DNA of 64,000 bases from Alphaproteobacteria bacterium (GTDB taxonomy: Bacteria > Pseudomonadota > Alphaproteobacteria > CALKHQ01). Of the stretch, positions 40,150 through 64,000 are shown piece after piece; position 1 is the first letter of the stretch, and each line of letters begins with the position of its first letter. The position numbers and the translations under genes were made by a program. The notes below the pieces were generated by a model that saw only the letters and a list, made by a program, of their open reading frames with translations, searched no databases and was not told the DNA's origin. The stretch spans positions 480,001 through 544,000 of the forward strand of contig CBDDFZ010000001.1 in NCBI GenBank assembly GCA_965227515.1. Reading direction: 5' to 3'.

Positions 40150-42075
40150 ATGACGGTTCACCACAGGTCGGTTGCGCAAGCGATCCTCAACCTGGCCTTC
40201 GACCGGCGCGCGCTGCTGCGCGGCAGCGCGGCGACCGCACTGCTGGCGCCCCTGCATCCGGCGCTGGCCCAGGACGGCGATGCAAGCCCGGGCGGCTCCG
40301 CGCCGGGCATCGACATTCACTGCCACATCTTCAACGCCGCCGACCTGCCGATCCGCGGTTTCGTGGAGAACGTCGTCTTCCAGCTCGAGGACTTCGGGCA
40401 GTGGCCGAACGAGGTGCTGCCGGAGCTGAACGACGTGCTGCCGGAGCTTCTGGAGCTGATCGTCGCCATCCTGAAGACCGGCGCCCCAAGTGCTGCTGAG
40501 GAACTGGCGCTGCTGCCGGCCCCTGAAGACGCAACCGATCCGCGCTGGAACGAGGATGCCGGCACCGGGCTGGACGACTGGAACACGGACAAGGAGCGGA
40601 TCTCGCGCGCCATGGGCGAGTATTTCGCCGCCCTGTTCACCGACATTGCCGATTCCGACATCCTGTCGCTGTTCGAGGAGCCCGACCTGAATAACCTCTT
40701 GGGGGCGGTCCAGTCCGGCCTGCAGATCCAGAGCCGCATCGTGCTGTTGCGGCGGCTGGTGGACGAGGTGCGCGAAAAACTGGCCACCGAAGGCGCGGAC
40801 ATCGACCTGGATATCGACGACCTGATCGACTTCGACGTCGATTTCGACATCGACCTGGATCTCGACCTCGACTTCGACATGGCCGCCGACCTGCTGCGCG
40901 GCAATTTCAGCGGCACCGACGAGATCGTCGATGCGATGACCGATGCGCTGCAGCAGGTGGTGGAGCACGTGCTGGACTGCGACGGCGACCTGTGCCGCGT
41001 CATCGGCTGGACCCGCCGCTTCCTGCGCTACCGCTACCAGAACGCCAACCGGCTGATCGCGCTGTATGGGGAGGACGCCAATCTGGGGCTGGTCACACCG
41101 GCCGTCGTCGACCTGTCGTACTGGCTGGCCGACGCGCCGCAGCAGGATTCGGAACTGGCGGCGCAGATCGAGGTGATGCACCGCATCTCGCTCACCCGCG
41201 ACGCGGTGAAGGTGCACGGCTTCGTGCCGTTCGACCCCTGGCGCGACATTGCGCCGGCGCGCGAGGACCGCCGCTTCGAGCCGCCCGGCCCGTCGTTCGC
41301 GATGGTGGAAACGGCGATCGCCACCCAGGGCTTCGTCGGCGTCAAGCTCTATCCGCCGATGGGCTTCCAACCCGCCGACAACCATCGCTCAGAGCGATAT
41401 CCGCGCGAGTTACGCCGCATCCGCGGCTTCGACGACAAGATGAACGCGGCCCTGGACCATCTGTTCGGCTGGTGCGCCGCCAACGGCGTGCCGGTGATGA
41501 CCCATACCGCCAACAGCCAGGCCGCCGGCGACGATTTCGGCGAACGGGCCGACCCGCGCCACTGGCTGGCGGTGTTGGAACGGCACCCGGAACTCAGGCT
41601 GAACCTGGCGCACTTCGGCAATTTCACCGCCGCGATGCACATCGACGGCCGACCCGAGGACACCTGGGAATGGACCATCGGCGCGATGATGGCCGCACCG
41701 GCCTTCCCCAACATCTATGCCGACATCAGCCATTTTGCCGAAGTCTTCAACGACCGGGTGCCGGCGACAGTGCGCAACCGCATCGCCAACCTGCTGGCCC
41801 AGTTTATCGAGGCATTCGATCCCGGACTCGACTACCTGATGTTCGGCACCGACTGGGTGATGACCGGCATCGAGCGCGGCTATCGCGGCAATGTGGACGG
41901 GGTGCGTGACCTGCTCGCGGAGATCGGCGTGGGCGCGGACGGTCAGGCAAGGGTGTTTGGCGGCAACGCGGCCCGCTTCCTCGGCCTGCAGTCCGGCGAA
42001 CAGAACCGCGGGCGGCTGGAGAAGTATTATGCCCAGCATGGCCTGGATGCCGGCTGGCTCAGCCGGTTTGGCTGA
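40150..42075 (+). CDS. Tat-type metal-dependent amidohydrolase (Amidohydro_2-like) with a large acidic insert
   Basis: DRRALLRG signal; IDIHCH, GVKLYPPMG, VMTH, LAHFG, YADIS, FGTDW. Confidence 0.85.
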   Translation: MTVHHRSVAQAILNLAFDRRALLRGSAATALLAPLHPALAQDGDASPGGSAPGIDIHCHIFNAADLPIRGFVENVVFQLEDFGQWPNEVLPELNDVLPELLELIVAILKTGAPSAAEELALLPAPEDATDPRWNEDAGTGLDDWNTDKERISRAMGEYFAALFTDIADSDILSLFEEPDLNNLLGAVQSGLQIQSRIVLLRRLVDEVREKLATEGADIDLDIDDLIDFDVDFDIDLDLDLDFDMAADLLRGNFSGTDEIVDAMTDALQQVVEHVLDCDGDLCRVIGWTRRFLRYRYQNANRLIALYGEDANLGLVTPAVVDLSYWLADAPQQDSELAAQIEVMHRISLTRDAVKVHGFVPFDPWRDIAPAREDRRFEPPGPSFAMVETAIATQGFVGVKLYPPMGFQPADNHRSERYPRELRRIRGFDDKMNAALDHLFGWCAANGVPVMTHTANSQAAGDDFGERADPRHWLAVLERHPELRLNLAHFGNFTAAMHIDGRPEDTWEWTIGAMMAAPAFPNIYADISHFAEVFNDRVPATVRNRIANLLAQFIEAFDPGLDYLMFGTDWVMTGIERGYRGNVDGVRDLLAEIGVGADGQARVFGGNAARFLGLQSGEQNRGRLEKYYAQHGLDAGWLSRFG

Positions 42076-44589: not shown

Positions 44590-45372
44590 CTAACGGCCCA
44601 GGAATGTCGCCCCAACTGGCACGCCGAGCTCTTCCAGCGCGGCAAGAAACGTTGCGTTCAGGCGGACCGCCAGATTGCTCCGGTCGCAGACATTGCTGCC
44701 GCCGGGCAGGCTGTGCCGGGCGTGCACCGCGACCACGAAACGCCGGGTGCCGATGGCGACGTGGAGCGGCGCACCGGACGCGCCGACGTCGCTGTCGCAA
44801 TCGTGGATGATCACGCCGGCGGTGTACGTGTCTTCCAGGCAGGGCGGCGGGATAGTGCACCCAGCCTGCACGTACGGCTGACGGTCGAGATCGGCGTGGT
44901 AGCCGGCCAGCACCAGGCGGTCGGCGATGCCGGGCAGCGCGGCGTCGGCAATGGGCCAGGGCACGAACGGCACGCAACCGGGCACCGGCGCCGCCAGCCG
45001 CATCACTGCCCAGTCGTCGGCGTCGTCATGACTGGCGCCGGTCGCCACCGACCCGGCGATGACTTGGATGGACGCGCCACCGGCGGCGGGAATGAACTCC
45101 ATGCGGTCGGCATAGGGCGTGCCGTCGGGGTGGGCGACCGTGTGGCGCGCGGTCGCCAGCACGTCGCACGCGCCGATCAGAAAAGCCGTGCTGCCGACTT
45201 CGCCCTCGGGATAGAGGATGCCGAGCGCCGACATCAGCGCGGTATCGCCGCTGTCCGCCGGCACCCGGTCGTCGGGGCCGATCACATCGACCGGTAGCGC
45301 CGGCGGGCCGGAGACATCAGGTGCGATGAGCAGGAACCAGCCAAGCGGCAGCAGGGCCGCCGCGGCAATCAC
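44590..45372 (-). CDS. Trypsin-like (V8-type) serine protease, exported
   Basis: TARH, DWAVMRL, HDCDSDVGASGAP catalytic triad; hydrophobic N-terminus. Confidence 0.8.
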   Translation of the reverse strand: MIAAAALLPLGWFLLIAPDVSGPPALPVDVIGPDDRVPADSGDTALMSALGILYPEGEVGSTAFLIGACDVLATARHTVAHPDGTPYADRMEFIPAAGGASIQVIAGSVATGASHDDADDWAVMRLAAPVPGCVPFVPWPIADAALPGIADRLVLAGYHADLDRQPYVQAGCTIPPPCLEDTYTAGVIIHDCDSDVGASGAPLHVAIGTRRFVVAVHARHSLPGGSNVCDRSNLAVRLNATFLAALEELGVPVGATFLGR

Positions 45373-45731
45373 GACTGTGGCCGGCGCAGGCGGCGATAAC
45401 GCGTGACGGCAATGGCGAGGCCACCGGTGAACACCAGCACGCCGATGACGGTCGGCAACCAGAGCGTCGCCGACGCCTCCGGCTCGTCCTGCAGGTCGCT
45501 GGCGAAGTACGCGCCGGCAATGGCAAACACCAGGCCGACCAGCATGATCATGAACGGGGTCGAGCCGATGGCGTAGAGCACCAGCAACGGGTTACGTGAC
45601 TGGCCGGCGTGGACCGCATCCAGCTTGGCCTGCAGGCCTTCGCCCTTCTCCAGCACGGATTCGGCGAGATCGCGCATTTGCGGGTCGAGCTTGTCGAGCT
45701 CGCGCCGCAGCTTGGGGTCGGTTTCCTGCAT
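45369..45731 (-). CDS. Hypothetical two-TM membrane protein
   Basis: Coiled N-terminus and two hydrophobic segments; GTGA overlap with the protease gene. Confidence 0.65.
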   Translation of the reverse strand: MQETDPKLRRELDKLDPQMRDLAESVLEKGEGLQAKLDAVHAGQSRNPLLVLYAIGSTPFMIMLVGLVFAIAGAYFASDLQDEPEASATLWLPTVIGVLVFTGGLAIAVTRYRRLRRPQS

Positions 45732-53666: not shown

Positions 53667-53762
53667 TACCCCGTCGCGTGATTGCCCGGCCCGTGCCATC
53701 ATGGCGCCATCAAACGAGGGTATGCACAACCTCGCGGCAGTGATCTTTAGGGGGAGAAGCTC

Positions 53763-54422
53763 ATGCGCGCAGTCGCATCGGCCGTTCTGGCCACACTGAT
53801 CGGATCGACATCCGCCTACGCCATCGACGAGGGATGGACACCGCAAACCGGCGACGACTATGTGCGCGCCGCGTGGGTGTTGTACGACCAGACGTGTGGG
53901 GTGAGTCTGGAGCTGCCCGAAAGCGAATTGACGGCTCTGCTGGGCGCGGACGGTGCGGGCAAATGCACGCTGATCAACGAGATCGCCCAGGTCTACCTGT
54001 CGCACGTGCTGGCGCTGGAGGAAGCGCAGAAGCGCGCCGGTCTGGAGGTCGACCTGCCGCCTTTTCCGGACTTCGAGGACGAGATTTCCGCGCGCATAGC
54101 GGAGTTGGTCTCGGGCAGCGGCACGCCGGCGTGGCACATCGTGGCCGATCCCAATCTGTCCGGCGCGCCGATCAACATCATAACCATGGCCGTCGATGCG
54201 TCGATGCTGAGCTATGGCATGGCGCAGCGTCTGGCCATCAGCACGGCACTCGCGAACGATCCCGAGGTTTTGATGTTGGACGAGCCGACGACGGCGCTCG
54301 ACGCCGAGACGGCCGCCGCCGTCGAGGCGGCGATGGAGGAAGCGGAAAGCGCCGCAGCCGGCAGCGCGGCGGGAGCCGATGCGGTCTCTGTCGAGCCGGC
54401 AACGCCAGATGCCAGCCAATAA
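53763..54422 (+). CDS. Signal-peptide protein containing a degenerate ABC ATPase domain
   Basis: RBS GGGGAG; AYA| cleavage site; GADGAGKC, LSYGMAQR, VLMLDEPTTALD; no recognisable Q-loop or H-loop. Confidence 0.7.
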   Translation: MRAVASAVLATLIGSTSAYAIDEGWTPQTGDDYVRAAWVLYDQTCGVSLELPESELTALLGADGAGKCTLINEIAQVYLSHVLALEEAQKRAGLEVDLPPFPDFEDEISARIAELVSGSGTPAWHIVADPNLSGAPINIITMAVDASMLSYGMAQRLAISTALANDPEVLMLDEPTTALDAETAAAVEAAMEEAESAAAGSAAGADAVSVEPATPDASQ

Positions 54423-54424
54423 TA

Positions 54425-54506
54425 TTTCAGGGACGGTTTACTAGATTCCAGATTTGCTGAGCGCGGACGGGACCCGCGGTTCTAATTTAGTAAACCGTCC
54501 CCGAAA
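54425..54506. repeat. Short palindromic element (GGGACGGTTTACTA termini)
   Basis: TTTCAGGGACGGTTTACTAGATT ... AATTTAGTAAACCGTCCCCGAAA between convergent genes. Confidence 0.75.
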
Positions 54507-54560
54507 CAGATGGCGCCACACGTAGTGGGAGGGCCAGCAAAAAGTGCCGTTGGTAGAATT

Positions 54561-56213
54561 CTACTGCCCGGTGCTGATCGGGATGACGCCGTTCACGTTG
54601 GCGTCGCTGAGGTCGCCCTCGATCGGATTGCCGTCCTCGTCGACGGCAGCGCGCAGCACCACGATAGAGATGCGGCGGTTGATCGGGTCGTAGGGGTCTT
54701 CCAGCAGCATCGGCTCGCGGTCGGCGCGGCCGACCACCCGGGTGATGCGGTCCTCGTCGATGCCGGCGGCGATCAGCGCACGGCGGCTGGCATTGGCGCG
54801 GTCGGTCGACAGCTCCCAGTTGCCATAGCCATTGTCGTTGGCGAACGGGCGCGCGTCGGTGTGGCCGGTGATCATGATCTCGTTGGGGATTTCCGCCAGC
54901 GCCAGCGCGATATTGGCCATCAGGTTACGGCTGTTCTCGGCCATGTCGGCGCTGCCTGACGGGAACATCGCCTGGTCCTCGCCATCCACGATCTGGATGC
55001 GCAGGCCCTCCGGCGTCTCTTCGATGATCAGGTTGTCGGCGAATTCGTTCAGCTCGGGGATCGAGTCGATTGCCGCGCGCACGTCCTCAGCCACCTGGTC
55101 AAATTGGGCCGCTTCGCGCAGTGCCAGCATCTCGGCGAAGTCGGCATCGGTCAGGCCGGCCAGTTCCTGCAGGGCGTTGTCGTCCATGCCGGCCAGTTCT
55201 TGCACCACCTCGTCATCCATGCCGGCCAACAGTTCGCCCATCGGCATCTGGCCGGGATATTCCGAGCCTTCCGGCGCTTCGCCGCGTGCGAGGGCGCCGA
55301 TCTCCGCTTCGCCCATGGCCATGTCGCCGATTTCGGCCTCGCCCATCGCGAGATCGCCGATTTCGGCCTCGCCCCGCGCCAGGTCGCCTTCGGCCGCATC
55401 GCCCTGCGCAACGTCGGCGTCGGCCGGATTGCCGGCAGCGTCGCCATTGTCCGCCTGACCGGCCGACAGATCGCCATTGGTCATCGTGCCCTGGGCGAGA
55501 TTGCCGTCGAGCAATGCCCCCGGCGCGCCGTCGCCATAGTCCTCGGTGCCGGGCCGCAACAGGCCCTCGATCTGCTCGCCGTAGTAGGCCAGGCCGTTGT
55601 CGCCCTCGGTCAGGTCTCCGGGCGGCCGATCGCCCTCGCTGTCGGACGGGTTCTCGATGCCCTGGGCGGCGAATTCGAACACCCGCTCCAGCGCCTCCGG
55701 GTGGCTCATGATGTCGATGCCCTCGGCCTCCAGGGCGTTCATCACCTCCTGATACGAGGTCTGCTCGACCAGTTCGGCCAGCATCTCGGGGTGTTCGACA
55801 ATATAGACCCCGTCCTCGACCATGTTCTCGATCATCTCTTCGGCACTGGTGCCGGAGAAAGTGCCGTTGGCCGGTCCACCGAAATTGTCGTCGCTGGAGT
55901 CGGGCAGCGACAACACGATCTCCGCCGGCGTGCCCGACGCCCGCAGCATGCCTTCGGACATGATCGAAGTGCCGCCCAGGATGCCGCCGGCGCCATGGCC
56001 GGACGGCCGCGCGTTCGACGGGGTGAAATAGTTGGCGATGCCGGTGAGCTGGTCGGGGCTGGTGGCGTTGATCAGCCACATCAACAGGAAGAACGCCATC
56101 ATCGCCGTCACGAAGTCGGCGTACGCGATCTTCCACGCGCCGCCGTGGTGGCCGTGGTCGCCCGCCTTCTTCTTCTTGACAATGATCGGTGCCAGTTCGG
56201 CGTTGGCCGCCAT
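54561..56213 (-). CDS. motB: Flagellar stator MotB with a large acidic repeat insertion
   Basis: WKIAYADFVTAMMAFFLLMWL; OmpA-like GHTD, NWELSTDRA, NRRI; 550 aa. Confidence 0.92.
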   Translation of the reverse strand: MAANAELAPIIVKKKKAGDHGHHGGAWKIAYADFVTAMMAFFLLMWLINATSPDQLTGIANYFTPSNARPSGHGAGGILGGTSIMSEGMLRASGTPAEIVLSLPDSSDDNFGGPANGTFSGTSAEEMIENMVEDGVYIVEHPEMLAELVEQTSYQEVMNALEAEGIDIMSHPEALERVFEFAAQGIENPSDSEGDRPPGDLTEGDNGLAYYGEQIEGLLRPGTEDYGDGAPGALLDGNLAQGTMTNGDLSAGQADNGDAAGNPADADVAQGDAAEGDLARGEAEIGDLAMGEAEIGDMAMGEAEIGALARGEAPEGSEYPGQMPMGELLAGMDDEVVQELAGMDDNALQELAGLTDADFAEMLALREAAQFDQVAEDVRAAIDSIPELNEFADNLIIEETPEGLRIQIVDGEDQAMFPSGSADMAENSRNLMANIALALAEIPNEIMITGHTDARPFANDNGYGNWELSTDRANASRRALIAAGIDEDRITRVVGRADREPMLLEDPYDPINRRISIVVLRAAVDEDGNPIEGDLSDANVNGVIPISTGQ

Positions 56214-62114: not shown

Positions 62115-62210
62115 GCCACTCCGCTTCACACCAAGTCGTCGCTGCGCCGCCCGCGGTCCCTTTCGGCGTCCGGGCTTCGGCCGGCGGCGACCCTAGCAGG
62201 CTGCCGACCC

Positions 62211-63065
62211 ATGGAACAGAAGCACGTTCTGGCACTTTCCCGTGAGGGGTTCCACAAGGTTGCCTACGTAGAGTGGGGCGATCCGGATGACCCGTGCCCG
62301 GTGGTCTGTGTCCATGGCCTGACCCGCAACGGGCGCGATTTCGACCCGCTGGCCAAGGCGTTGGCCGATGCCGGCCGCCGCGTCGTGTGCCCGGATATCG
62401 TCGGGCGTGGCCTCAGCGACCGGCTCGATGCCGCCGATCTCTACGGCTACCCGCAATATTGCAGCGACATGGCGACGATGATCGCGCGGCTGGACGTCGA
62501 CGCGGTGGACTGGGTCGGCACCTCCATGGGCGGGCTGATCGCCATGTTCCTGGCCCAGCACCGCAACGTGCCGATCCGCCGGCTGGTGATGAACGACATC
62601 GGCCCGTTCGTCCCGAAGGCATTCGTTGCCCGGCTGCGCGACTATGTCGGTCAGGCACCCGAATTTCCGGACCTGGCCGCCGCCGAGGCCTATCTGCGCC
62701 AGATCCACGCCCCGTTCGGCGACCTTGACGACGATGCCTGGCGCCATCTGGTGACCCACAGCACATGGCGGCTGGAGGGCGGTGGCTTCGTGCTCGCCTA
62801 CGACCCCAAGATCGCCGTCCCGCTCCGCGCCGGTGGCGACCCGACGGATATCGATATGTGGTCGTTCTGGCCCAACGTGCGGATGCCGGTCTTGCTGGTC
62901 AGAGGCGCCGAGAGCGACCTGTTGCTGCCGCAGACCGTGCAGCGAATGGCCAAGGACTACCAGGGCTCGGCCTTCGAGGTCTTCGAGGTCGAGGGCGCCG
63001 GGCACGCACCGGCGCTGATGGCCGACGATCAGATCGCGGCCGTCCAAGACTGGCTGGCGGCGTGA
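62211..63065 (+). CDS. Alpha/beta-fold hydrolase
   Basis: VHGLTRN, GTSMGG nucleophile elbow, RGAESDLL, GHAP. Confidence 0.9.
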   Translation: MEQKHVLALSREGFHKVAYVEWGDPDDPCPVVCVHGLTRNGRDFDPLAKALADAGRRVVCPDIVGRGLSDRLDAADLYGYPQYCSDMATMIARLDVDAVDWVGTSMGGLIAMFLAQHRNVPIRRLVMNDIGPFVPKAFVARLRDYVGQAPEFPDLAAAEAYLRQIHAPFGDLDDDAWRHLVTHSTWRLEGGGFVLAYDPKIAVPLRAGGDPTDIDMWSFWPNVRMPVLLVRGAESDLLLPQTVQRMAKDYQGSAFEVFEVEGAGHAPALMADDQIAAVQDWLAA

Positions 63066-63068
63066 ACG

Positions 63069-64000
63069 ATGAGCCAGGGCGCGCCGCTGATCCTGACCGG
63101 GTTGGCGCGTGACCTTGGGCTGACGCCGTTTCGCCCGCGCCTGCCGTGGGTCGGCCCCGACCTGCAGACCATGCGCAATCTGCTGATGGGCCATCGCCCG
63201 GACCTCAGCGACTTTCCCCAGGAACGGCACGTCACGCGCATGCCGGACGGGGACCAGCTGATCAGCGCCCTGAACCTGCCCACCCAGCCGGCGCCCGACG
63301 CACCGCTGGTGGTCATCGTCCACGGCATGACCGGCTGCGCCGACAGCCGCATCGTCAGCACGACCGCGCTCTGCCACCTCAAGCGGGGCTGGCCGGTTCT
63401 GCGGCTGAACCTGCGCGGCGCCGGGCCGTCCCGCGCGGTGTGCCAGGGCGCCTACCATGCCGGCAGCAGCGCGGACATTGCCGCCGTGCTGGCTGACGTG
63501 CCGCCGGAGTTGCGCGAGAACGGCATGGTCGGCGTCGGCTTCTCGCTCGGCGGCGCACTGCTGCTGAAACATCTGGGCGAGACGGGTGCCGCGAGCGGAT
63601 TGCGGGCGGCGGCCAGCGTGTCGGCGCCACTGGACCTCGCCGCCTCGGAACTGCGATTGCGGCGGCGGCGCAACTGGATCTACCGGCGCGAGCTGTTGCG
63701 CGACCTGAAGGCCCAGGCGGTCGACCATATCGGCCGCATGCCGGCGGCGCGCCAGCGCGCGGTGCGGGCGGCGCGCAACATCGCCGCCTTCGATACCCAT
63801 TTCACCACCGCGTTCACCGGCCACACCGATGCCGCGCGTTATTACGAGGACTTCGCGCCGTTACGCTATCTGGCCGGGATCGAGACCCCGACCCTGGTGG
63901 TGCACGCGCTGGACGATCCATGGATCGCGCCGGCGCCATACCGGGCGCTCGCCCACCAGCACCACCCGCACATTTCTCTGGCGTTGTCGCGCAAAGGCGG
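63069..64000 (+). CDS. YheT-family alpha/beta hydrolase, 3' truncated by window edge
   Basis: Manual translation: VHGMTG, LNLRGAG, YHAG, GFSLGG, HALDDP. Confidence 0.85.
   Translation, partial: MSQGAPLILTGLARDLGLTPFRPRLPWVGPDLQTMRNLLMGHRPDLSDFPQERHVTRMPDGDQLISALNLPTQPAPDAPLVVIVHGMTGCADSRIVSTTALCHLKRGWPVLRLNLRGAGPSRAVCQGAYHAGSSADIAAVLADVPPELRENGMVGVGFSLGGALLLKHLGETGAASGLRAAASVSAPLDLAASELRLRRRRNWIYRRELLRDLKAQAVDHIGRMPAARQRAVRAARNIAAFDTHFTTAFTGHTDAARYYEDFAPLRYLAGIETPTLVVHALDDPWIAPAPYRALAHQHHPHISLALSRKG

Follow-up and report, generated by a model that had tools for sequence, protein, structure and literature searches.

The 64,000-nucleotide stretch of DNA analyzed here (the window) comes from an Alphaproteobacteria bacterium (assembly GCA_965227515.1, contig CBDDFZ010000001.1, positions 480,001 to 544,000) and encodes, at its positions 53763 to 54422, a protein of 219 amino acids (aa) in which a predicted signal peptide is joined to sequence motifs of the nucleotide-binding domain (NBD) of ATP-binding cassette (ABC) ATPases. 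The upstream neighbor, on the same strand, is a gene of the indolepyruvate-ferredoxin-oxidoreductase type (1174 aa), and downstream lie a convergent motB-like gene and then motA. The open frame spans 223 aa, with four codons between an upstream in-frame stop and the ATG, so that no longer N terminus is possible. The G+C contents of the three codon positions of this open reading frame (ORF), 0.67, 0.50, and 0.81, form the coding pattern of a GC-rich genome. The features of the gene and its immediate surroundings, in window coordinates, are as follows.

53750..53756, + strand: Shine-Dalgarno-like GGGGGAG, 6 nucleotides (nt) 5' of the ATG, read from the sequence
53763..54422, + strand: ORF of 219 aa with ATG start and TAA stop, a listed ORF, translated
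53763..53822, + strand: predicted Sec signal peptide of the signal peptidase I (SPase I) type, residues 1-20, cleavage after A-Y-A, called by a heuristic script
53823..54197, + strand: family-specific N-domain, residues 21-145, from family alignment A3
53895..53897, + strand: codon of Cys45, invariant in 12 of 12 family members
53898..53996, + strand: ABC-like island 1, residues 46-78 (a strand, the Walker A-like GADGAGKC at 53943-53966, and the start of a helix), from phmmer alignments to the ABCB1 and ABCB4 NBDs
53964..53966, + strand: codon of Cys68, at the Ser/Thr position of Walker A, invariant in 12 of 12 family members
54198..54350, + strand: ABC-like island 2, residues 146-196 (signature, Walker B, D-loop, and the next helix), kept across the family
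54207..54230, + strand: signature LSYGMAQR
54267..54284, + strand: Walker B VLMLDE
54291..54302, + strand: D-loop TALD
54351..54422, + strand: acidic, Ala/Ser-rich low-complexity tail (residues 197-219) and the TAA, from the translation
54425..54506, no strand assigned: long hairpin between the ORF and the convergent motB-like gene, a probable bidirectional terminator, from RNA folding

An earlier note on this DNA, made from the letters alone, had described a good ribosome-binding site, ABC motifs in the correct order, two cysteines only, an acidic and alanine-rich tail, and the absence of a permease or substrate-binding protein (SBP) gene nearby, and each of these is found. The GGGGGAG stands just ahead of the ATG; GADGAGKC (residues 61-68), LSYGMAQR (149-156), VLMLDE (169-174), and TALD (177-180) follow one another; the translation has Cys only at 45 and 68; residues 197-219 are rich in Ala, Glu, and Ser; and a Pfam scan of positions 40150 to 63824 detected no ABC permease, SBP, or ATPase among the 24 other ORFs. 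The tails of the other family members resemble this one in composition and not in sequence.

ABC NBDs are cytoplasmic, and they are among the most conserved of cytoplasmic engines. The N terminus of this protein points elsewhere. In our own heuristic script, which was used for all signal-peptide calls in place of SignalP, it has the Sec/SPase I layout of a basic n-region, a hydrophobic h-region, and small residues at -3 and -1: Arg2 is the sole basic residue (n-region charge, +1), an uncharged stretch of 19 residues follows, and A-Y-A precedes Ile21, with a best 11-residue Kyte-Doolittle mean of 2.38. A basic start, an uncharged stretch of 19 to 22 residues, and an AXA-type site shortly before an invariant Trp recur in 12 of the 12 members of the family described below and in its distant relative P0275. 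Positive charges precede the hydrophobic stretch and acidic residues follow it, which fits an N-in, C-out orientation, so that the body of the protein would be periplasmic whether the peptide is cleaved or not. Export, as the earlier note had claimed, is thus likely, as judged from this heuristic prediction across 12 members and P0275.

An exhaustive phmmer search covering 1.84 billion representative proteins recovered three full-length relatives, P0121 (206 aa, 40% identity), P0123 (207 aa, 40%), and P0122 (238 aa, 36%), and a truncated fourth, P0213 (175 aa, 33%), all four aligning along their whole length from the N terminus onward. A profile built on residues 1 to 146 added P0269 to P0272, and scans of contigs from genomes and metagenomes yielded loci L010 to L014, in metagenome-assembled genomes (MAGs) labelled Pseudomonadota or Alphaproteobacteria. 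The family consists of the ORF and 11 relatives of full-length type (P0121, P0122, P0123, P0213, P0269 to P0274, and the ORF of L014), and it is very rare: 12 such members, together with P0275, among billions of proteins. Members are about 200 to 240 aa long, and the window copy is 32 to 40% identical to the others over its whole length. Their 12-row alignment (A3) has 21 invariant columns (M1, W25, P27, A36, W38, C45, G46, C68, L79, G93, F101, P102, P122, W124, A135, P136, S150, Y151, G152, Q155, and R156), which make up the patterns W-x-P, AAW, C-G ... C, FP, P-x-W, AP, and SYG..QR, with conservation of 90% or more at D173, E174, P175, and D180. Invariant positions run along the full length of the protein, which we took as the mark of a new family.

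The N-domain has no Pfam match in any member, and the NCBI label of two members, both from Pseudomonadota MAGs, is only "ATP-binding cassette domain-containing protein," which overstates their nature. The suggestion that the family is undescribed stands, in that a generic ABC match is the only one among Pfam and NCBIfam models; in the parts of the literature open to full-text search, no report of exported ABC-derived proteins was found. Across 401 genomes of the class, with 7 candidates scored per genome, a full-length profile (A1) found no member beyond the one in the genome that carries this gene (G000), and the N-domain profile (A2) added one weak match, in G001. Longer, fused forms (>275 aa) were not found, although a search of this type is weak evidence.

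The weak match, P0275, is a distant relative of 191 aa from one sister-genus genome, aligned to the family by hhalign with 90.6% probability over 130 columns; used as a query, it found nothing outside G001 among 61 genomes. Its gene (L017:9118-9690, - strand; G001:C18) encodes a product with a signal peptide and four Cys, in which the motif LDLPPFP and a degenerate form of the signature helix are recognizable and Walker B is missing. The locus lies between a gene for a DsbA/ScsC-like thioredoxin-fold protein and cydA-cydB. A functional link to CydDC was considered, since CydD and CydC are top NCBIfam rows and P0275 lies beside cydAB, and was dropped: PstB and AztA score equally, and the cydAB genes of G000 (C2:881440-883886) have no family-type neighbor.

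The genomic context of the family differs between lineages, so it provides no functional hint. The window copy lies between the indolepyruvate-ferredoxin-oxidoreductase-like gene and motB/motA, whereas members of the main clade have a major facilitator superfamily (MFS) transporter gene on one side and, on the other, a small secreted four-Cys ORF, DUF2794, a YfgM-like gene, bamB, and der. The four-Cys ORF (104 aa, with a signal peptide and no Pfam match) is conserved and convergent, directly downstream of every main-clade member examined (L012:8662-8976, L011:4814-5128, L013:3673-3987, and L014:6653-7024, all on the - strand); as a conserved partner it was rejected, having no homologue in G000.

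The mature part of each member contains exactly two Cys, at aligned positions 45 and 68, so that the homologues with both a signal peptide and the two Cys for which the earlier note had proposed a search do exist, in all 12 of 12 sequences. When two Cys of an exported protein never vary, a disulfide is generally indicated, and C45 and C68 probably form one, stapling the N-domain.

Resemblance to ABC ATPases is above chance, given a Pfam ABC_tran (PF00005) match of 57.7 bits (cut-off, 25) in which residues 46 to 177 cover profile positions 3 to 137 of 137. This resemblance is confined to two islands, residues 46-78 and 146-196, with nothing aligned between them in the three phmmer alignments to PDB entries that were inspected. 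The best-scoring solved relatives are the exporter-type ABCB1, ABCB4, and MsbA, and CydD, PstB, and AztA head the NCBIfam rows, but every NCBIfam score falls far under its family cut-off, as in the many sub-threshold matches to ABC equivalogs (such as 62 bits for CydD, with a cut-off of 435).

The second island is common to the family. With the window copy left out, hhalign matched the family to 84 ABC ATPases with 99.05% probability over 43 columns, from the signature through the helix after the D-loop, and this island is the sole region in which the family profile matches ABC NBDs in the PDB (about 37 bits per domain). Ten of the 11 other members match ABC_tran, 9 of them above the cut-off, at 22.8 to 35.8 bits and over profile positions ~98 to 137 only, which run from the signature to Walker B; these matches never extend to the Walker A part of the profile. 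The family shares with NBDs the LSYGMxQR signature, a Walker B of the form hhhhDE, the D-loop, and the next helix, at 40 to 50% identity over about 50 residues. LSYGM stands opposite LSGGQ in every alignment inspected, keeping the Ser and the second Gly and replacing the first Gly by Tyr and the Gln by Met; a phosphate contact by LSYGM is putative. Asp173 and Glu174 of Walker B sit on columns that are invariant among the 84 ABC ATPases. By these sequence matches, an ABC NBD is the true evolutionary source of the C-terminal ~50 residues, which survive as its relic.

The first island is found in the window copy alone. Here a strand-like segment leads into GADGAGKC, in which the Gly residues and Lys of GxxGxGK[ST] are present (G61, G64, G66, and K67, all on invariant columns of the 84 ABC ATPases) and the Ser/Thr position is occupied by Cys68. 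The motif is absent from 11 of the 11 other members, where the segment between the cysteines is 6 to 9 residues shorter and not a P-loop, the position of Lys67 holds Q or L in the four members compared, and the Cys is nonetheless kept at the Ser/Thr position. Trp38 presumably precedes Walker A by about as many residues as the adenine-stacking aromatic residue does in NBDs.

Much of what makes an NBD is missing. Residues 79 to 145, where the Q-loop and the helical subdomain would lie, have no aligned ABC stretch in the three PDB alignments, which leaves ~67 inter-island residues without ABC similarity, and a tblastn search of the G000 genome for ABC resemblance of residues 79 to 146 returned the gene itself and nothing else. 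The Walker A Lys and the signature are 82 residues apart. No His occurs after H125, so an H-loop is lacking, and the helix past the D-loop runs straight into the tail, where the C-terminal strands would otherwise be. The earlier note's statement that neither a Q-loop nor an H-loop is recognizable was therefore correct. Because the Walker A Ser/Thr, the Q-loop, the H-loop, and a cytoplasmic location with a membrane partner all fail to appear (the N terminus being signal-peptide-like by the heuristic and no permease or SBP gene lying among the 24 ORFs), the protein is not filed as an ABC ATPase.

How the window copy came by its Walker A-like island can be asked of the genome and of the family. 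Compared with resident ABC genes by tblastn, the island reaches 57% identity over 30 aa (E = 1.8e-5), and no nucleotide-level donor was found in the genome, with no match longer than 23 nt. Its G+C content at third codon positions (GC3) equals that of the remaining codons of the gene. All members have the same number of residues between C68 and Y78-L79, and P0121 and P0123 have G-P-x4-Q-C at the aligned place. The window copy is best read, from these comparisons, as the most ABC-like member of the family, with a Walker A region that is an ancestral retention and has decayed elsewhere.

A secondary capture would reverse this history: an unrelated secreted helical protein would have gained a C-terminal ABC fragment of ~45 residues and, later and by recombination, the Walker A island, with an N-domain that had never been an NBD. 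Such a course of events is unlikely, despite some agreement with the data. The ABC homology of the family shrinks to 43 columns when this copy is removed, the N-domain of every other member is free of ABC similarity, and the tree places the copy inside the family (support, 81/91, weak), where a single gain is more parsimonious than three or more losses. A captured patch would, however, have to land its Cys at an invariant position and keep the spacing from C68 to Y78-L79, and it would have to come from a source that the genome does not show (57% over 30 residues at best) yet with the same GC3 as the surrounding gene. Furthermore, the G-P-x4-Q-C of P0123 and P0121 resembles a decayed P-loop, and P0275, with its eroded signature helix and lost Walker B, shows the progressive decay of ABC motifs.

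Structure prediction by AlphaFold2 (AF2) depends on the alignment supplied. With the 12-row family multiple-sequence alignment (MSA), the mean predicted local distance difference test score (pLDDT) is 73.2, the predicted template modeling score (pTM) is 0.60, and 65 residues are at 90 or above. This model contains helices at residues 30-45, 53-91, 106-118, 137-165, 167-170, and 181-199 and no strand. Block-mean pLDDT is 77 to 97 over residues 31 to 140 and falls below 50 in the Walker B strand region (169-179) and in the tail (200-214 and 216-219). A Foldseek search of this model against the PDB returned 0 matches at E ≤ 1e-3. By VIA-align, it resembles only helical bundles of a generic kind (best Z, 8.3, a value that common arrangements also reach). 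Among these are periplasmic four-helix bundles of chemoreceptors (PcaY_PP and McpS) and the generic alpha-catenin VH1 and talin rod, which align at Z scores of 6 to 8 over 83 to 93 residues but at 5 to 10% sequence identity; a Z of this size reflects an arrangement common to helical models, and no membership is claimed.

With the 84 ABC ATPases alone as the alignment, mean pLDDT is 63.9, pTM is 0.58, and 1 residue is at 90 or above. This second model has one core strand (57-60) and helices, with pLDDT below 50 at residues 85-89, 95-100, and 133-143, and its superpositions on NBD structures are weak (TMq, 0.39 to 0.53; root mean square deviation, 5 to 10 Å). The ABC fold claimed in the earlier note is not supported by these predictions, since the family-based model is all helical and unmatched and the weakly NBD-like one is of lower confidence. 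The main clade cannot have a P-loop core and shares with this copy 32 to 37% identity and all of the invariant residues, so that a common, largely helical fold across the family is, as far as the models go, the better bet. An AF2 homodimer of residues 21 to 200 built on the family alignment (score, 0.02; mark, 0.42) is evidence neither way.

Constraint on the gene was estimated from five main-clade genes. The ratio of nonsynonymous to synonymous substitution rates (dN/dS) is 0.12 to 0.22 for the whole gene, 0.035 to 0.12 for the N-domain, 0.075 to 0.385 for the ABC-like segment, and 0.37 to 0.87 for the signal peptide, the last being a height typical of signal peptides. Closer to the window copy, contigs from the public runs X2, X3, and X5 are 90 to 99% alike and cover parts of the gene. 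The differences listed for them include 35 substitutions, distributed 11/4/20 over codon positions 1/2/3; 15 of the 29 changed codons are synonymous, the nonsynonymous changes cluster in the variable stretch 116-127 and leave P122 and W124 untouched, and no frame-breaking change is among them. An X2 contig diverges after position 54040, and translation of its loose end in this frame still yields the conserved DLPPFPD stretch in diverged form. The dN/dS values of the main clade, together with the frame kept in these three runs, indicate that the gene is not a decaying fragment, and the pseudogene that the earlier note had offered as grounds for refutation did not materialize.

For the same reasons it is highly improbable that the ORF is a decaying remnant or a chimera of a cytoplasmic ABC ATPase gene whose hydrophobic N terminus arose fortuitously. 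That view would account for its truncation relative to an NBD, for a GC3 of 0.81 against 0.87 to 0.93 in four neighbors, for the lack of an orthologue in three sister-genus genomes under a full-length query, for a look-up that listed no RNA run for this stretch, and for a word-based search in which the only sequences of its kind were the ORF and P0002, identical to it for 65 residues and then unrelated. It does not account for 11 relatives that share 21 invariant positions (both Cys and three Trp among them) and the signal-peptide layout, for purifying selection in those relatives, for changes in near relatives that are mostly at third positions and preserve the frame, or for a gene framed by a good ribosome-binding site and a strong terminator hairpin.

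The word-based single-protein search itself was set aside, as it returned only generic ABC ATPases (~30% identity) and P0002 and missed the real relatives. P0002 is the 133-aa product of a 543-nt contig. Its first 65 residues are identical to those of the ORF (window 53763-53957), the identity stops inside the Walker A-like motif, and the 68 residues that follow are unrelated and have no equivalent in this genome (best tblastn E, 0.002). Either an assembly chimera or an allele rearranged in a related strain may explain the contig, which was excluded from the analysis.

The intact glycines and Lys67 of the window copy raise the question of whether its P-loop still works, in which case the protein would be a periplasmic binder or sensor of nucleotide, phosphate, or pyrophosphate, built on a stripped-down ABC-like fold with a disulfide-stabilized P-loop. 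The invariant-column residues G61, G64, G66, and K67, the higher ABC_tran score (57.7 bits here versus 22.8 to 35.8 in the other members), and the conservation of S150, G152, Q155, R156, D173, and E174 across the family agree with such a function, as do the synonymous changes of the X2 contig in codons 1 to 93 and the weak match of the ABC-only model to NBD structures (TMq up to 0.53). In ESM Atlas features, residues 21 to 146 resemble ABC fragments at 0.89, below the 0.9 threshold for a lead. Nevertheless, a working P-loop appears unlikely, because 11 of 11 other members have lost Walker A and kept both Cys, because the Mg-coordinating Ser/Thr has been exchanged for a Cys that is probably disulfide bonded, and because the Q-loop, the H-loop, and the NBD strands after the D-loop helix are all missing. 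The models lean the same way: the all-helical one is the more confident, and the ABC-based one has a single core strand of at least 3 residues (57-60) and low pLDDT in the three segments given above. As the function of the family, the periplasmic nucleotide or phosphate binder of the earlier note is not supported, Walker A being absent from the 11 other members.

We favor, at a probability of roughly 0.6, an exported, probably disulfide-stapled, noncatalytic protein that descends from an ABC NBD. Such a protein would be exported through Sec and cleaved after Ala20, and in the periplasm a C45-C68 disulfide would staple a mostly helical N-domain. That strongly constrained domain would form the functional core; the ABC-derived signature helix, Walker B strand, D-loop, and next helix would be kept as a structural or interaction module; and a disordered acidic tail would make up the C-terminal end. 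The most likely role is that of a noncatalytic periplasmic binding or scaffold protein, with nucleotide binding presumably lost. ATP hydrolysis is very unlikely from the sequence, because the C-terminal half of the NBD (the strands past the D-loop helix), the Q-loop, and the H-loop are lacking, because a Cys occupies the Mg-ligand position of a Walker A that all other members have lost, and because the destination compartment has no ATP; the periplasm lacks an ATP supply.

Several observations weigh against this interpretation. Export and the disulfide are themselves predictions from sequence, and the family-based model puts C45 at the end of helix 1 and C68 within helix 2, 15 residues from its start, a placement that may keep the two apart in this copy. 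The family alignment is shallow, at 12 rows from ~5 distinct lineages, and AF2 may over-predict helices from it; Foldseek, moreover, matches the ABC-based model to NBDs (21 matches at E ≤ 1e-3; best E, 1.2e-4). The Walker A island is as close to ABC ATPases as those are to each other, and the inner position of the copy in the poorly resolved tree means that ancestral retention needs several independent losses. In the X2 contig, all three listed differences in codons 1 to 93 are synonymous (two more are unlisted), which fits continued constraint on the P-loop in this copy. The GC3 of the ORF is below that of its four neighbors, and the surroundings of the gene are not conserved between lineages. 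Finally, S150, G152, Q155, R156, D173, E174, and P175 are conserved beyond the apparent need of a scaffold, and the conservation of S150, Y151, G152, Q155, R156, D173, and E174 would be compatible with a site that binds phosphate, a metal, or a partner.

A bolder possibility is that the window copy is a living intermediate in a fold transition, a cytoplasmic NBD that was cut short, acquired a signal peptide and a disulfide, and became an exported helical protein, whose P-loop may still bind an extracytoplasmic phosphate-bearing ligand. We consider this quite doubtful; if true, it would be the first extracytoplasmic ABC-type P-loop binder.

As a noncatalytic descendant of an NBD, the family would show that a piece of an ABC ATPase (the signature helix, Walker B, and the D-loop) can survive under purifying selection alongside a signal peptide and two conserved cysteines. 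The family has lost the P-loop, Q-loop, and H-loop, and the window copy, which still bears a P-loop, ties it to its origin and makes it a case study in domain decay and exaptation. It would also allow the capabilities of the signature/Walker B element in the absence of ATP to be tested cheaply. For annotation it carries a warning, in that "ATP-binding cassette domain-containing protein" as a pipeline label misleadingly implies the ATPase of a transporter. With so few members, the family has little practical impact at present.

Between the ORF and the motB-like gene, the segment from 54420 to 54512 folds at -39 kcal/mol (z, -5.9), a value equalled by 0 of 200 shuffled sequences, and the inner stem of the hairpin (54462-54478) was also picked up by a consensus terminator scan. 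The hairpin (54425-54506) is 82 nt long, near-perfect, and AT-richer than its flanks. One arm of 24 nt reappears as an inverted pair at G000:C2:1437089-1437174, and the hairpin may be a small repeated element of the terminator type.

The convergent MotB-like protein (window 54561-56213, - strand) is unusually long, at 550 aa. It has a MotB plug at residues 13 to 64 and an OmpA domain at residues 416 to 502, separated by a highly acidic linker of ~350 residues that holds near-tandem repeats of G-E-A-E-I-G-D-[LM]-A-[MR]. Farther downstream, a 543-aa ORF (window 62193-63824, - strand) has no Pfam match at E ≤ 1e-4 and a GC3 of 0.72, versus 0.81 to 0.93 in the other ORFs of the 40- to 64-kb region, and it may be foreign or fast evolving. 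On the upstream side, two adjacent ORFs of 260 and 120 aa (window 44590-45731, - strand; GC3, 0.85 to 0.88), likewise without a Pfam match, adjoin genes of the glyoxalase, glutaredoxin, and BolA types.

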